In this document: one piece after another, positions 3,721 through 51,089 of the stretch | How positions within the stretch are numbered: the stretch's first letter is position 1 | How the letters are laid out: each line of letters opens with the position of its first letter | Assembly (NCBI GenBank): GCA_000004985.1 | Contig: GG738868.1 | From: Naegleria gruberi | Taxonomy: Eukaryota | DNA length: 64,000 nt | Direction: 5' to 3' (one strand) | Translations under genes and position numbers: made by a program | Notes under the pieces: generated by a model | Database searches by the model: none | Told to the model about the DNA's origin: nothing | What the model saw: the letters and a program-made list of their open reading frames with translations, nothing else

Positions 3721-3791
3721 TGCATTAGCCGGGAGTCGAACCCGGGTCACCAGCTTGGAAGGCTGGTATGATACCGTTACACTACTAATGC
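3721..3791 (-). tRNA. tRNA-Gly (anticodon UCC)
   Basis: Reverse complement is GCATTAGTAGTGTAACGGTATCATACCAGCCTTCCAAGCTGGTGACCCGGGTTCGACTCCCGGCTAATGCA. Perfect 7-bp acceptor stem GCATTAG/CTAATGC. Anticodon stem CCAGC/GCTGG with loop CTTCCAA (anticodon TCC). T-stem CCGGG/CCCGG with TTCGACT loop. Near-identical to canonical eukaryotic tRNA-Gly-TCC. Confidence 0.9.
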
Positions 3792-4125
3792 TTCTCTCTT
3801 TAAAATTAATTGATCAATGTGGGTTGATAAGTATCCCTAACCTGGAAGGTCCTTTTTCCAACAAGATCTGTTTTTCTGTACTATTCGCTATTTACTCTTT
3901 ACTTAATAGTAATTTTTATGATTGATTTAAGGTAAGGAGTCAGTATTCTTAAAGAAGGTAGAGTTCATAATAATTATTCCAATTCAAGTAATTTCATCTT
4001 AATTGTAGTTAAAATTACCCAATAAATCCAAGAGCTTTAGCGAAAATGCATCTTGTTCCTCATCCCCAAACGGACATTGAAGAGTTACTTGAAAAAAAAC
4101 ACCTTTGAAGTGTTAGAATCATCAG

Positions 4126-6232: not shown

Positions 6233-7582
6233 TTATAAGAGTGATTGATTTTCACCATTTTTCTTTTTCAGTTTCTTGAGAATCGAAAAGAGAACACTCA
6301 TTATTAAGACAACAATCAACACTAACAAGATGAACCCTCCCACACTTCCAAAGATAACCCCAATCAGAGTATAGTCCTCCTCCTTAGGATTGTCGCTGCT
6401 ACTGATACTGCTTGAATAATTATTGTAAATAATACTGCTTTCTGTTGTAATCCAATAGTTCAAAATGCAATTTTCATACTTTCCCATTGTATCCAATAAG
6501 AAATGTTGCCATCTTTGATTTAGTCTGTCAAATCTATAGAATGGATAGCCAGAGGAGCAATCAGAATTACCTATGAATATTTCACCATCCATTGTAAAGA
6601 TTTGAGCCATGTATCCTATTGGAGTTCCAAACTCTGTCCATGTCGAAGAGTCTGCATCAAGTGATATGGCAGCTCCTTCCACTCTTGAAGCAAAGTACTT
6701 GGAATTAACAGAATCAAATACTATGGAATTGATTCCAATTGAATTGTTTGATCCAAATAGCTTCAAATCTTCAAGAGTAAACGTAGCAGTATTGAATTGA
6801 ACTCTTGCCGAGTTTTTAATTTGATCAACTGAGAAGGTACCAACAACAATTACTGATATTGAACTTGTGTCCTTTTCAGAGATTAGTAGAAAATCGTTCA
6901 AACTATTCTTGGTAGAAAAAGGGATAGAACATTTTCTTGTTTGTAAATCCACTATAAACAAATTACTCTTAGAGGAAACCACCATAAATCTTCCATCCTT
7001 ATTATTGCAAACTCTAACCTTTGTAAATGCTGCAGATGTAAACTCAACTGGAGCATTGTTAACTTCAAAATTAGTCCACTTTTCCTCTTTAACATTCCAC
7101 ACAACAATCTTGCTGTTAAATTTCTGATTCTCATATGAATATCCAACAATATACACAAGTCCATAATCTTCCTCATAATCAATATCCTTCACAGTTACCG
7201 AACTGTCTAACCCTCCTTTCATATTGTCCCACATCTGCAAATCAGCCTTAAATTGAGCTACCCCTTTAAAACCATTACCTTGGAAACTTCCACCCACAAT
7301 CACCAACCTTTCCCTACTCAAGATTTTCATTGCGAAAACTTCATATCCAAGTGGACGTCCATTCACATCTTTAAATGGAAAAGGAAGAGAGTTTCCGACG
7401 GCATGCCAATCGGATCCATGACCCTCTTGCAAAGATGCCAGAGAATCAATGAATTTACCTGTGACTGGAGATGTGGTTCTGTAATCTCCACCAACAACCA
7501 GTGTGAAATTTGGGTTCAGGCCAGCACAAACCAACTCTAGCACTACTAGGACCAACAAAAGTAAAAGTGTGAGTGGAGACAT
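6233..7582 (-). CDS. Type I membrane protein: cleavable signal peptide, large extracellular domain (beta-propeller-like, many N-glycosylation motifs), single C-terminal TM helix, short basic tail
   Basis: ATG at 7582. N-terminal MSPLTLLLLLVLVVLELVCA signal. C-terminal LIGVIFGSVGGFILLVLIVVLIMSVLFSIL followed by KKLKKK. No specific family recognised. Confidence 0.55.
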   Translation of the reverse strand: MSPLTLLLLLVLVVLELVCAGLNPNFTLVVGGDYRTTSPVTGKFIDSLASLQEGHGSDWHAVGNSLPFPFKDVNGRPLGYEVFAMKILSRERLVIVGGSFQGNGFKGVAQFKADLQMWDNMKGGLDSSVTVKDIDYEEDYGLVYIVGYSYENQKFNSKIVVWNVKEEKWTNFEVNNAPVEFTSAAFTKVRVCNNKDGRFMVVSSKSNLFIVDLQTRKCSIPFSTKNSLNDFLLISEKDTSSISVIVVGTFSVDQIKNSARVQFNTATFTLEDLKLFGSNNSIGINSIVFDSVNSKYFASRVEGAAISLDADSSTWTEFGTPIGYMAQIFTMDGEIFIGNSDCSSGYPFYRFDRLNQRWQHFLLDTMGKYENCILNYWITTESSIIYNNYSSSISSSDNPKEEDYTLIGVIFGSVGGFILLVLIVVLIMSVLFSILKKLKKKNGENQSLL

Positions 7583-7816
7583 TTTTTTAACGATACTCCT
7601 GACATTATAATGAATAAATCAAAATTATTTAAATTTTCTAAAGAATGCAAAGGTTAAATTTCCTGCAAATCTAAAATAAAGGGAATTCTTAAAATGTGTA
7701 AATGTGAAGAAGCAGAAAATGGTCTAGAAGCTTTAAAATTGGTATCAAAAGATTTGAACTATTTTTTGAATAGTTTTATATAACCGCTTGATGTCAATTT
7801 GAAAAATAAATGTGAA

Positions 7817-7877
7817 GGCGACATAGCTCAGTTGGGAGAGCGTAAGACTGAAGATCTTAAGATCCCTGGTGTCGGCA
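7817..7877 (+). pseudogene. tRNA-Phe(GAA)-like sequence with precise deletion of the T-loop and 3' T-stem (truncated tRNA or tRNA pseudogene)
   Basis: GGCGACATAGCTCAGTTGGGAGAGCGTAAGACTGAAGATCTTAAGATCCCTGGTGTCGGCA. Canonical D-arm and anticodon arm (loop CTGAAGA, anticodon GAA). After the 5' T-stem CCTGG the sequence jumps directly to the 3' acceptor strand TGTCGGC+A; about 12 nt (TTCGATCCCGGG-like) are missing relative to canonical eukaryotic tRNA-Phe. The acceptor stem has one G.G mismatch. Confidence 0.6.
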
Positions 7878-7997
7878 TATTTTAAGTTTATACCTGTTTA
7901 TTTGTGTAACAAGCTGTTTAATTTTTGCAACAACATTGTCAGAGAAGATCGAACTATTAAAACGATGACCAATGAACATTTACTAGCCTAAAGCTCA

Positions 7998-8459
7998 TTA
8001 AAATTTAATTTTCATAAGAGGGAATTGTTCTAAGTAGGCCTCCAACGGTACTTTTTGAATATTAGGTGTTGTTTCAAAGAAATGATTTAATTTTGCGTTC
8101 AACTCATCTTCTGTACAAGGAACGGAAGTTTGAAGAGAATAATGGTCGGTGTGTTCATGAATAAGAACCAAGTCATCTGGAATGGCAACTCCTTCAGGAA
8201 TCAGAATTAGCCCAACCTTTTTTTTGTAGTGGGCAAGAATATGCCCAAGAGTATGACCTCCTGGACGCAAGGAAAGACCATTAGGACATTCAAAAACATC
8301 ACCCTCAGCTGGTTGTACCATTCCGTTTCGTAACACAAAATCAAAAGATTTTTTTCCAGCCTTTGTTTGTCTGCGATATTCTCTTAAAGCAATTTTTTTA
8401 AAAGTGTCTATTCTGTAGAGATTGCATGGAAACTTATTGAAGCGAGTTAGTGTGGACAT
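7998..8459 (-). CDS. Hypothetical 153-aa protein (conserved-looking core ..FVLRNGMVQPAEGDVFECPNGLSLRPGGHTLGHILAHY..); function unknown
   Basis: ATG at 8459, single exon. Globular composition with His-rich motif. No confident family assignment. Confidence 0.45.
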   Translation of the reverse strand: MSTLTRFNKFPCNLYRIDTFKKIALREYRRQTKAGKKSFDFVLRNGMVQPAEGDVFECPNGLSLRPGGHTLGHILAHYKKKVGLILIPEGVAIPDDLVLIHEHTDHYSLQTSVPCTEDELNAKLNHFFETTPNIQKVPLEAYLEQFPLMKIKF

Positions 8460-35665: not shown

Positions 35666-37104
35666 ATGGGTAACGCACCGAGTGGAGGACAACAACCTTT
35701 CCAACTTCCTGGCGCTGGAAAAAAGCAGAATAAGGACGATAAGAAAAAGAAGAAGGAAAAGAAAAAGTTTGAACAACCAGTACCAACCCGTATTGGCAGA
35801 AAAAAGAGGAAAAAGGGTCCACAAATTGCTGAAAAGCTTCCAGAAGTTACACCAGTCTCAAAATGTAAACTTAGAATACTACGATTGGAAAGAGTTAAAG
35901 ACTATCTTACAATGGAAAAAGAATTTGTTACTAATCAAACAAAACTTTTGACTGCCCAAGAAAAGAGCAAGGATATGGAAGAGGAACGTAACATGGTCGA
36001 TGAATTAAGAGGATCACCAATGGCTGTAGGAACTCTTGAAGAAATTATTGATGATAACCATGCTATTGTTTCTAGCAGTGTTGGTCCTGAATTCTATGTT
36101 TCAATCCTTTCAATTGTTGATAAGGATCAATTGGAACCTGGTTGTAGTATTTTAATGCACAATAGATATTTGGCTGTTGTTGGTATTCTTCAAGATGAAG
36201 CCGATCCAATGGTCTCTGTCATGAAAGTCGATAAGGCTCCTCTCGAATCATATTCACAAATTGGTGGTTTGGAAGATCAAATCCAAGAAATCAAGGAAGC
36301 TGTCGAATTCCCATTAACACATCCAGAACTTTATGAAGATATTGGTATTAAACCACCAAAAGGTGTTATACTTTATGGTGAACCAGGTACAGGAAAGGTA
36401 TGTAGTAATTATTTATACAACAATGTATTAATCATCATCATTATACTTATATTATTGAATATGTATAATCATATTAGACACTTCTTGCCAAAGCTGTAGC
36501 CCATCACACCAGTGCTACTTTCTTGCGTGTTGTTGGTTCCGAACTCATTCAAAAGTATCTTGGTGAAGGTCCAAAACTTGTTCGTGAATTGTTTAGAGTT
36601 GCTGAAGAATTGGCTCCAAGTATTGTATTTATAGACGAAATTGATGCTATTGGTACAAAGAGATTTGATTCAACATCAGGAGGTGAACGTGAAATTCAAA
36701 GAACTATGCTTGAATTGCTTAACCAATTGGACGGTTTCGATTCCAGGGGTGACGTTAAGGTTATCATGGCCACTAACAGAATTGATTCTCTTGATACTGC
36801 TTTGATTAGACCTGGTAGAATTGATCGTAAGATTAAATTCCCATTCCCAGATGTTAAGACAAAGAGAAAGATCTTTGAAATTCACACTCGTAAGATGAGT
36901 AAGGCTACTGATGTAAATTTGGATGAATTTATTTCCTCAAAGGATGAATTGTCTGGTGCTGACATTAAAGCTATTTGTACAGAAGCAGGTTTGTTGGCTC
37001 TCAGAGAACGTAGACTCCAAGTTACTCAAACAGACTTTACAAAGGCCAAGGAAAAGGTTTTGTACAAAAAGCAACAAGGTATTCCAGAAGGTCTTTACAT
37101 TTAA
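35666..37104 (+). CDS. RPT2: 26S proteasome regulatory subunit Rpt2 (PSMC1 ortholog), 2 exons: 35666..36397 and 36478..37104 (80-nt intron, GTATGT...CATATTAG)
   Basis: [49 protein letters not shown].. (myristoylated Rpt2 N-terminus). AAA+ core [12 protein letters not shown]|[62 protein letters not shown].. split by one intron after GTGK. Near-identical to human PSMC1 over the ATPase domain. Confidence 0.93.
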
Positions 37105-44985: not shown

Positions 44986-46527
44986 TTAAGGTAATTTCAT
45001 AAGTCTGACAGTGTGGGCCATATGATTGACAGTTTCAGCACCAATTACTAAGACTACCAGATCGCCAGGTTGGGCAAATGACTTTTCAACCAAATATTTA
45101 CAACAAAGCTCTTCGACACTGTGAGGACCTGTGATGTAATCCGTGTTATGGATTAGTACAGGAGTAATTCCCCAACCTAATGTGAGACGATTGAATGTAA
45201 ATTCTTGATCTGTCAATGCAATGATTGGAACATTAGGTCTGTATTGAGAAATACTGACAGCTGTTTTCCCTGAATTAGTGATACAACAAATTAATTTAAC
45301 ACCAGAGTGCTTATTTGCAATAGTAGAAGCAGCCATGCAGCTAGCATTTTCAATAGAGTCAGTGGCATTACTGTTGAAATCATTCTCATGAGAGTCCAAT
45401 CTACCAAACTTGTGAGAATTGATGTCAGCTGTTCTCACAATTAAGTGCATAGTTTTGACAGAAAGAACTGGATATTTTCCCATAGCTGATTCATTACTCA
45501 ACATGACTACATCTGTTCCATCAAAACATGCATTGGAAACATCTGTAACTTCAGCTCTGGTTGGAATTTTACTTTCAACCATAGATTGCAGCATTTGGGT
45601 GGCTGTAATATCAATTTTACCTGCTTTGGAGGATTTTTCAATTAATTCCTTTTGGAAAATTGGTAATTCATGGAAATTAGTCTCAATCATCAAATCACCT
45701 CTATGTGAAATAATTATCAGAAAAAAAATCATTCTACAAACTTACCTTGCAACCATCAATCCATCAGCTTCCTTAAGAATGGCATCAATATTTCTAATAG
45801 CTTCAATTCTCTCAATTTTTGCAATAATTGGAATAGTTTTACCAGCAAATTTCATCATTAGATTCTTGGCATCAATAATATCTTGAGCAAATCTGACAAA
45901 ACTCAAACAAACATAATTAATTTCACCACATTTCATACCAAATTCCAAATCAGCAATATCTTTTTCTGTCAATGCAGGGGCTGAAATAGTTGCCCCTTCA
46001 TCAACCATATTAATTCCCTTTCTTTGAGATAACATTCCTCCTGTTACAACTTTACAAACCATTTCAGTTTCTTCTTGATTTTTAGAAACAACGTGCACTT
46101 CCAAATAACCATCATCAATCATTAATTTAGAGCCAGGTCTACAATCCCTAACCAAATTTGGATAAGAAGTAGAAACTTTTCTAGGTCTAGTTTCATTATC
46201 TTCACCACTCGCAATAACACTCTTATCTGTAGTGATCACAATTTCCTCTCCCTCAACAATCATGAAAGATTTACCCAATTTACCAATTCTAATCTTTGGA
46301 CCTTGAAGATCTTGAACAATTGCAAATGGAATTCCACCCAATTCCTTCTGTGCCTCTCTAATCTTTTGAATCGTCTCCAAATGAACGTTGTGTTCTCCAT
46401 GACTAAAGTTTAATCTAGCTGCGTTCATTCCTTCCATCATCATTTGCATTATTATAGATTTATCGGAAGAGCTTGGGCCGATCGTGCACAATATTTTGGT
46501 TCTTCTATCAGATGCTGTTCCGTTCAT
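44986..46527 (-). CDS. PYK: Pyruvate kinase, 2 exons: 46527..45746 and 45700..44986 (45-nt intron GTAAGT...TTTCACATAG)
   Basis: ATG at 46527. ..RRTKILCTIGPSS..MQMMMEGMNAARLNFSHGEH..LQGPKIRIG..MVDEGATISAPALTEKDIADLEFGMKCGEINYVCLSFVR..IIAKIERIEAIRNIDAILKEADGLMVA|R|GDLMIETNFHELPIFQKELIEKSSKAGKIDITATQMLQSMVESKIPTRAEVTDVSNA.. The intron splits the invariant MVARGDLGIE motif (phase 2). Confidence 0.92.
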
Positions 46528-50389: not shown

Positions 50390-51089
50390 ATGCAATTGTT
50401 TAGAGATTTTAGTTTTTTGAATTCTCCGCATACAAATAATAAGAAATCTACTCAGGTTTCTTGTTACACTAAAGACACTTGTGGTGTTAAGGAGAACTTG
50501 TACTTCTTCAGTCATGATGACGGTAGAGGGCCTATTCGCTATTTTTGATGTGGCTCTTTTTACCTTGAAGGAAATGGATTTCCACTATCGTCCTCTTGCT
50601 ATGGACGACTCTAACCTCGACTCTCTCCAATATTCTCTCACTCAACAACTCGACCAATCTATGAATTTCCTTTCCAATACTACATTCAAAAATACCCAAA
50701 AACTTTCACCAAAATCTGTAATGTTTGTTTATACTATTGGTGATGAATTACCAGATTATGACGATGCTTCATCAGAATCATCATTGGAATCTGACTCAAG
50801 TGATGCTAATATTAGAACTGGATTTACTGGTATTATCGACTTTGAAAAGAACGAAATGACAATTTATCCACCTTCTAATTCTTCATGCATGAATAAGGAT
50901 TCTGTTATTAATCTTATGGACATGGCTGATTGCCTCGGTATTTCAACTTTGTACATGTGTATTGAAAAGAACCATCAAGAAATTAGAGAGTTTTCTCGTG
51001 GTTTCATTTATGCTGGTTTCGAATTGATACAACCAAAGATTAAGCAATTGTCTTCAACTGAATGGGTTGTTTTTGGTGCTGAATTGTAA
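50390..51089 (+). CDS. OAZ: Ornithine decarboxylase antizyme homolog, predicted to require a +1 programmed ribosomal frameshift: ORF1 50390..50548 (52 codons, ends UUU-UGA), ORF2 continues in +1 frame from 50547 to 51089
   Basis: C-terminal half of ORF2 (..MTIYPPSNSSCMNKDSVINLMDMADCLGISTLYMCIEKNHQEIREFSRGFIYAGFELIQPKI..) matches the antizyme ODC-binding domain (..LYVEIPDG..VFICFHKNREDRAALLRTFSFLGFEIVRPGHPL..). Upstream ORF1 starts at ATG 50390 (aaaATGc) and ends ..CGC-UAU-UUU-UGA-UGU; skipping the U of UGA reads GAU-GUG-GCU.. (ORF2). The track ORF 50481..51089 starts at a GTG. Confidence 0.6.

Follow-up and report, generated by a model that had tools for sequence, protein, structure and literature searches.

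How should we interpret a tRNA gene from which a single arm is missing: as a gene that has recently died, as an RNA that has taken on a different role, or as a fault in the assembled sequence? The question is raised by an element on the plus strand of the Naegleria gruberi genome, at positions 7817-7877 of the 64,000-nucleotide stretch of DNA analysed here, which we call the window. The element resembles a tRNA-Phe(GAA) gene of the eukaryotic type, and yet it is 61 nt long rather than 73. An initial annotation of the window described it as a tRNA-Phe that lacks its T-loop and 3' T-stem, and left three explanations standing: a pseudogene, a tRNA-derived regulatory element, or an assembly collapse. 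Below we argue, with a probability that we put at roughly 85%, that the element is a recently inactivated nuclear tRNA-Phe(GAA) copy in N. gruberi NEG-M, and hence a very young pseudogene.

The full sequence of the element is GGCGACATAGCTCAGTTGGGAGAGCGTAAGACTGAAGATCTTAAGATCCCTGGTGTCGGCA, which divides into the segments GGCGACA TA GCTC AGTTGGGA GAGC G TAAGA CTGAAGA TCTTA AG ATC CCTGG TGTCGGC A. When the 64-kb window is scanned with Rfam, the tRNA family (RF00005) matches at exactly these 61 positions, with a score of 39.4 bits over model positions 1-71. The gathering threshold for this family is 29 bits, and the E-value of 8e-5 refers to the 64-kb window searched against all 4227 Rfam families; the match is well beyond chance. 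A covariance-model score was the check that the initial annotation had named for its own call, and a score of 39.4 bits exceeds 29, so the element is tRNA-related and belongs to the family.

The same alignment locates the defect. It is normal in the acceptor stem, the D-arm, the anticodon arm (loop CUGAAGA, anticodon GAA) and the discriminator A; the T-arm alone has collapsed, with two positions in place of 13 model positions. The complete four-arm cloverleaf, with its T-stem and 7-nt T-loop, is absent, and the description of the element as tRNA-Phe-like with a defective T-arm is borne out. Its other parts had also been called canonical. This is true of the D-arm, of the discriminator A, and of the anticodon arm, whose loop CTGAAGA is canonical for Phe, but it is not true of the whole acceptor stem: six of the seven pairs form, and both the covariance-model alignment and the ARAGORN drawing place G2 opposite G71, a non-standard 2:71 pair. 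Run on the window, ARAGORN makes no call at the element and reports the tRNA-Gly alone; when 12 nt are re-inserted into the element, the program calls a 73-nt tRNA-Phe(GAA). The features of the locus are collected in Table 1.

Table 1. Coordinates, strands and sources for the truncated tRNA-Phe copy, its parts and its neighbours (positions are those of the window).
Feature	Position	Strand	Basis or remark
Truncated tRNA-Phe(GAA) copy	7817-7877	+	RF00005, sequence reading
Acceptor 5' strand	7817-7823	+	
A box TAGCTCAGTTGG, tRNA positions 8-19, intact	7824-7835	+	Sequence reading; assigned by the established eukaryotic consensus
D-arm	7826-7841	+	
Anticodon arm	7843-7859	+	Anticodon GAA at 7850-7852
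A44-G45	7860-7861	+	
Deletion junction	7861/7862	+	MAFFT and blastn against L001
T-loop remnant ATC	7862-7864	+	
Single T-stem strand CCTGG	7865-7869	+	
Acceptor 3' strand	7870-7876	+	
Discriminator A	7877	+	
TTTT, Pol III terminator-like	7880-7883	+	3 nt past the discriminator; a terminator of at least four T
NAEGRDRAFT_79782	6233-7582	-	
NAEGRDRAFT_79783	7998-8459	-	Tse2-like; corresponds to XP_002677237
Intact tRNA-Gly(TCC)	3721-3791	-	RF00005 69.3 bits, ARAGORN

The element sits in a spacer of 415 bp between the protein-coding genes NAEGRDRAFT_79782 and NAEGRDRAFT_79783. By exact look-up, six open reading frames of the window are N. gruberi RefSeq proteins residue for residue (XP_002677125, XP_002677236, XP_002677238, XP_002677239, XP_002677241 and XP_002677242), and all six are placed on one scaffold of 427,589 bp. 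The window has a GC content of about 33% and is dense in long open reading frames, and its gene content is eukaryotic and intron-poor: the products include a Rev1-type polymerase with a BRCT domain, NXF1/TAP, the GPI transamidase subunit Gaa1, an arrestin and SPRING1, together with a proteasomal AAA ATPase, Tpt1, an ornithine decarboxylase (ODC) antizyme, and BTB and DUF4116 repeat proteins. The GC content and the density of long frames had at first suggested a phage, a bacterium or a giant virus as the source of the window; such a source is rejected both by these genes and by the exact RefSeq matches.

Several of these neighbours deserve a remark of their own. The product of NAEGRDRAFT_79783 contains a domain of the Tse2 ADP-ribosyltransferase toxins (PF18648, E = 7e-25); this family is known from type VI secretion toxins of bacteria, and here occurs in a eukaryote. 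The gene has orthologues in Willaertia magna (66%) and other relatives (75%), and its RefSeq model of 107 aa looks truncated against the roughly 150 aa found in the open frame and in all relatives. The pyruvate kinase at 44986-46527 (-) is split into two open reading frames just 9 nt apart, possibly by a short intron or a frameshift. Its matches comprise near-identical metagenome sequences, two sequences at 78%, and a remainder at or below 48% in which the named ones are bacterial (Bacteroidota, Planctomycetota), a pattern that may point to an enzyme of bacterial type or to an old horizontal transfer. The proteasomal AAA ATPase at 35666-37104 (+) likewise comprises two open reading frames, 35666-36499 and 36523-37104, separated by a gap of about 23 nt that is presumably a short intron. 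The open reading frame at 50481-51089 (+) belongs by its domain (PF02100) to the ornithine decarboxylase antizymes, whose genes normally require a programmed +1 ribosomal frameshift.

Only two Rfam tRNA matches in the 64-kb window rise above threshold, namely the element and the intact tRNA-Gly(TCC), which the initial annotation had correctly reported at a distance of 4 kb. Two tRNA loci in 64 kb are consistent with the 924 tDNAs reported for N. gruberi (PMC2888827). A similar motif precedes both of these genes and ends 17-18 nt upstream of their position 1; it reads TTGATGTCAATT for the tRNA-Phe, at 7788-7799 (+), and TTGATCAATT for the tRNA-Gly, at 3808-3817 (-). The motif could be a Naegleria Pol III promoter element; with n=2, a chance resemblance in AT-rich DNA is possible as well.

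In order to interpret the missing segment, we require a second sequence of the same locus. Such a sequence is provided by a metagenome contig, L001 (ENA ERZ929261 k127_100885), which was found through the identical product of a 153-aa open reading frame. By blastn, L001 aligns with window positions 13230-7823 at 98.8% identity over 5445 aligned positions, in an alignment that contains 22 mismatches and 10 gap openings. Because the identity is so high over so many positions, L001 derives from another strain of the same species. A search of the literature for PRJEB11402 found nothing.

At the orthologous position, L001 reads ...ATAGCTCAGTTGGGAGAGCGTAAGACTGAAGATCTTAAGGTCCCTGGTTCGATCCCTGGTGTCGGCAtattttaag: it carries a tRNA-Phe gene with a complete T-arm, ...AAGGTCCCTGGTTCGATCCCTGGTGTCGGCA, whose 3' region reads ...CTTAAGGTCCCTGGTTCGATCCCTGGTGTCGGCAtatttta and whose T-loop is the canonical TTCGATC. 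This gene scores 50.9 bits, even though the end of the contig cuts it at tRNA position 7 and the first six bases are absent. Nor does the neighbouring contig, L122, supply the 5' acceptor strand that is cut off in L001: it ends about 145 nt away from the gene. The two strands of the T-stem in L001 read CCTGG and CCTGG, which leaves a T51.T63 mismatch.

A pseudogene is recognised by a disabling lesion relative to an intact orthologue, and this is what the comparison reveals: the same locus is intact in a contig of 98.8% identity, restoration of the 12 nt yields a tRNA-Phe call, and the bases lost include the GGTTCG of the B box. Of the three explanations left standing at the outset, it is the pseudogene that this evidence favours. 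The truncation arose within the last 1.2% or so of sequence divergence. NEG-M (ATCC 30224) is the sole N. gruberi genome in the list of a pangenome study of 2023 (PMC9928731), and the window, with its exact matches to N. gruberi proteins, is accordingly the NEG-M nuclear reference. Naegleria is described there as a heterozygous diploid; an intact allele could persist on the second NEG-M haplotype.

Conservation at greater depth was sought through the orthologues of the Tse2-like gene. Contigs L124 and L125 (75% identity) and the W. magna contig L123 (66%) have different neighbours at this gene and no tRNA-Phe, synteny being kept in none of the three; look-ups of other open reading frames of the window in the contig index gave no matches. 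The W. magna contig does contain a tRNA-Gly(TCC) gene, at 13310-13393 of L123 (JBEGDK010000064.1), that is near-identical to the one at window 3721-3791 (-). The W. magna gene has a 13-nt insertion just past the anticodon, which is the canonical intron position, and the N. gruberi copy is without it.

We now consider the extent of the deletion. In a MAFFT global alignment of the window with L001, one 12-nt gap explains all differences within the gene; what had been estimated as about 12 missing nucleotides is exactly 12. The missing segment is GTCCCTGGTTCG, such that L001 reads CTTAAG/GTCCCTGGTTCG/ATCCCTGGTGTCGGCA where the window reads CTTAAG/ATCCCTGGTGTCGGCA. Across the junction the sequence of the window is TCTTAAG/ATCCCTGG, and the junction can slide by 1 nt, with a G on both flanks. 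The bases lost are tRNA positions 46-57, that is, G46-T47-C48, the 5' T-stem CCTGG, and T54-T55-C56-G57; under this one-event alignment, A58-T59-C60 and the 3' T-stem are the survivors.

The register of the deletion requires some care. The surviving CCTGG can be assigned to either strand, because both T-stem strands read CCTGG in the intact allele, and from the sequence of the window alone the register is not decidable. The initial annotation had assumed that the 5' T-stem was kept and that the loop and 3' T-stem were lost. A deletion in that register has the same length but has to be accompanied by a G46A substitution, and every one of the 112 complete metagenomic homologues described below has G46. 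The earlier register is probably wrong, and by this comparison the 3' half of the T-arm was probably kept and the 5' half lost.

The sequence of the intact allele also suggests how the deletion may have arisen. It contains an 8-nt direct repeat, TCCCTGGT, which occurs twice, 12 nt apart, in the arrangement (G)TCCCTGGT-TCG-(A)TCCCTGGT. The repeat is perfect because position 63 is a T; in animal tRNA-Phe this position is G63, paired with T51. The loss of exactly one repeat period is a classic product of replication slippage, and the geometry of the repeat suggests slippage here. Starting from a normal 73-nt tRNA-Phe gene of the eukaryotic type, still present in another N. gruberi strain, slippage would have removed one 12-nt unit by way of a terminal G.T wobble: the nascent strand would have been copied through A58 and then realigned onto G46, a route that fits the A kept at the junction. 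Alternatively, a plain slip from repeat to repeat may have been followed by an independent change of G to A.

It is important to ask whether NEG-M truly has the 73-nt gene, one 12-nt repeat unit having been dropped from the consensus by an assembly or sequencing error. The missing segment is indeed exactly one period of the TCCCTGGT...TCCCTGGT repeat, and the sole other available sequence of the locus, L001, carries the full gene. However, an 8-nt repeat at a spacing of 12 nt is far below the size of a read, and too short to collapse in an assembly by read overlap. The NEG-M reference was reportedly built from multi-fold Sanger shotgun data, in which a consistent loss of 12 nt would be improbable. 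The six open reading frames that were checked are all intact and equal to their RefSeq models, and the remaining indels that separate the window from L001 resemble natural polymorphisms: two are 3-nt, in-frame changes in an open reading frame of 1160 aa, and others, of 1, 2, 7 and 14 nt, fall in spacers, among scattered substitutions. We consider the collapse that the initial annotation had entertained to be unlikely, and continue to read the deletion as a property of the NEG-M genome.

For comparison with tRNA-Phe genes in general, we scanned JGI metagenome contigs with the 28-nt core of the D-arm and anticodon arm, and recovered tRNA-Phe genes of other organisms, more than 120 in number; not one of these core-matching genes has the acceptor stem of the element or a T-arm deletion. 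A T-loop motif is present in each of the 112 complete homologues, with none truncated, and 102 of them are exactly 73 nt long with a closed acceptor stem. The 7-bp acceptor stem is perfect in 104/112. Twelve intact homologues score 61.6-70.2 bits, compared with 39.4 for the element. In viral contigs, neither the truncated form nor the intact 3' half was matched by an exact-pattern scan.

Two of the metagenomic sequences are unusual in a different manner. The tRNA-Phe(GAA) homologues at L008 1156-1241 and L047 311-396 (Ga0114962_10109996 and Ga0114962_10086435) are 86 nt long, with an insertion of 13 nt within the T-loop, shown here in parentheses: GGTTCGAT(ATCAGCTCGAAAC)CCCGGT, from which L047 differs by 2 bases. 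Their acceptor stem is perfect only when the insertion is spliced out, and Rfam and ARAGORN both parse them wrongly (39.0 and 37.8 bits); a non-canonical T-loop intron or a family of pseudogenes could be the explanation.

The homologues bear upon the timing of the inactivation. Conceivably the deletion struck a copy that had already become a pseudogene through the point lesions G2.G71 and T51.T63; such a history would alter the order of events in the main reading, and not its outcome. It would account for the T.T mismatch at 51:63 in the T-stem of L001 and for the G.G mismatch at 2:71 in the acceptor stem of the window, a stem that closes perfectly in the great majority of homologues. It would also agree with the divergence between the window and L001, which is similar within the gene (1 event in 73 nt) and in the spacer beside it (4 events in about 120 nt). 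Nevertheless, the L001 gene retains its score of 50.9 bits despite being cut at the end of the contig, ARAGORN accepts the 73-nt reconstruction, and a mismatch in the acceptor stem is also found in 8/112 homologues that are otherwise normal. An earlier death is a possible timing, although we would hold it only tentatively. If G2.G71 and T51.T63 are private to this locus, then decay preceded the deletion; if they are a general trait of N. gruberi tRNA-Phe, then they carry no meaning.

Whenever it began, the inactivation of a tRNA gene can be read in its promoter. Pol III transcription of tRNA genes depends on TFIIIC, which binds an internal A box and an internal B box. By the established eukaryotic consensus, TRGCNNAGTGG, the A box of the element is intact; it is identical in L001, and the metagenomic tRNA-Phe homologues have it in near-identical form, with 1-2 base changes in the D-loop in several of them. 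The B box has the consensus GGTTCGANNCC and occupies tRNA positions 52-62. From the B box of the element GGTTCG has been deleted, with ATCC alone left, and the internal promoter of A box plus B box is incomplete. Downstream, the trailer TATTTTAAG, with its run of four T, is common to the window and L001, and T-runs also follow most of the metagenomic tRNA-Phe genes.

As judged from Pol III biology, the loss of GGTTCG, including the critical C56, would leave the gene silent or weakly transcribed. The T-arm, moreover, helps to build the acceptor/T minihelix that is recognised by RNase P, RNase Z, the CCA-adding enzyme, exportin-t and eEF1A, and from tRNA biology we would expect any transcript without a T-arm to be unable to serve as a tRNA. 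Most probably the copy is dead. Its loss would be effectively neutral, and the copy would now be decaying; one tRNA-Phe copy may be lost without cost because 924 tDNAs have been reported.

Some transcription could nonetheless proceed from an upstream element; we know of no characterisation of Pol III promoter requirements in Naegleria. In principle we should also weigh a functional RNA, either a T-armless tRNA that still decodes or a tRNA-like RNA that serves as a tRNA-derived regulator or decoy. Much of what such an RNA would require has been kept: six of the seven acceptor pairs, the D-arm, the GAA anticodon arm, the discriminator A, the A box and the downstream TTTT. T-armless mitochondrial tRNAs are known from nematodes, mites and other metazoans, and like the element they have acceptor, D and anticodon arms, no T-arm, and a length of about 60 nt. 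Those tRNAs, however, are organellar, are conserved across species, and have co-evolved with EF-Tu and processing enzymes, whereas the element is nuclear, lying between two nuclear protein genes, is specific to a strain, has an intact sister allele, and has lost a promoter element. The truncated form is not conserved: its nearest relative, L001, has a complete gene, and 0/112 homologues are truncated.

Nor does the predicted structure of the 61-mer speak for a functional RNA. Its minimum free energy (MFE) of -16.3 kcal/mol is no better than that of shuffled sequences (z = -0.47), and the best fold gives up the D-arm. In the cytosol, eEF1A, RNase P, RNase Z and the CCA-adding enzyme need the T-arm, and the GGTTCG of the B box is gone. 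We regard a functional T-armless RNA at this locus as very improbable, and the regulatory element that had been put forward as one explanation, absent as it is from the nearest relative and unremarkable in its fold, finds no support. Just as remote is the more specific scenario in which the A box and an upstream element (for example TTGAT..CAATT, held in common with the tRNA-Gly gene) might still drive a stable RNA without a T-arm, with a non-decoding role as a regulatory RNA or as a decoy for PheRS or tRNA-modifying enzymes. If it were true, the locus would be a natural example in which an armless tRNA-like RNA of the cytosol is just being born.

Finally, a tRNA-like sequence in a spacer may be what is left of a tRNA-derived SINE, or may be a tRNA copy inserted by retroposition. 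Such an origin is worth raising, for tRNA-derived repeats are common in eukaryotes. The tDNA count of N. gruberi is also high (PMC2888827). Yet the 415-bp spacer around the element has no second copy within the 64-kb window, and its flanks, unique within that window, offer nothing like the multi-copy, tRNA-unrelated body or tail common to the members of a SINE family. The 3' end bears neither an A-rich tail nor CCA, and is followed instead by a gene-type TTTT trailer that is also present in L001. Furthermore, the intact allele has the full length of a 73-nt gene and carries no appended sequence. We give this origin hardly any credence, and return to the element as a young nuclear pseudogene.

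As such, the element may be compared with known systems. Like the eukaryotic nuclear tRNA pseudogenes that tRNAscan-SE labels 'pseudo' and that feature in work on tDNA turnover (PMC2888827), it combines homology to a functional gene with a disabling lesion and a lowered covariance-model score, and the tDNA family of its genome is likewise very large. It differs from them in being unusually young, in that it is identical to the intact allele except for the 12-nt deletion and one or two stem mismatches, and in that its intact allele still segregates in the species. A second comparison is with engineered B-box deletions and point mutants, in which, as here, the A box and terminator are kept and the 5' half of the B box is removed. 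B-box mutants of such a design lose TFIIIC binding and transcription. In contrast to those constructs, the element is a natural allele in a heterolobosean amoeba, and its loss of promoter function is a predicted one.

The practical consequence for the N. gruberi NEG-M reference is that the locus is best labelled as a tRNA-Phe pseudogene, or left uncalled, which has little import beyond annotation. The locus could help to tell strains apart, and could offer studies of Pol III transcription in Naegleria a natural B-box knock-out. It also presents, as a matter of minor value, a cleanly dated death of a tRNA gene, with intact and deleted alleles within one species, in which a point change that perfected a direct repeat in the T-stem may have primed the very slippage that destroyed the gene.
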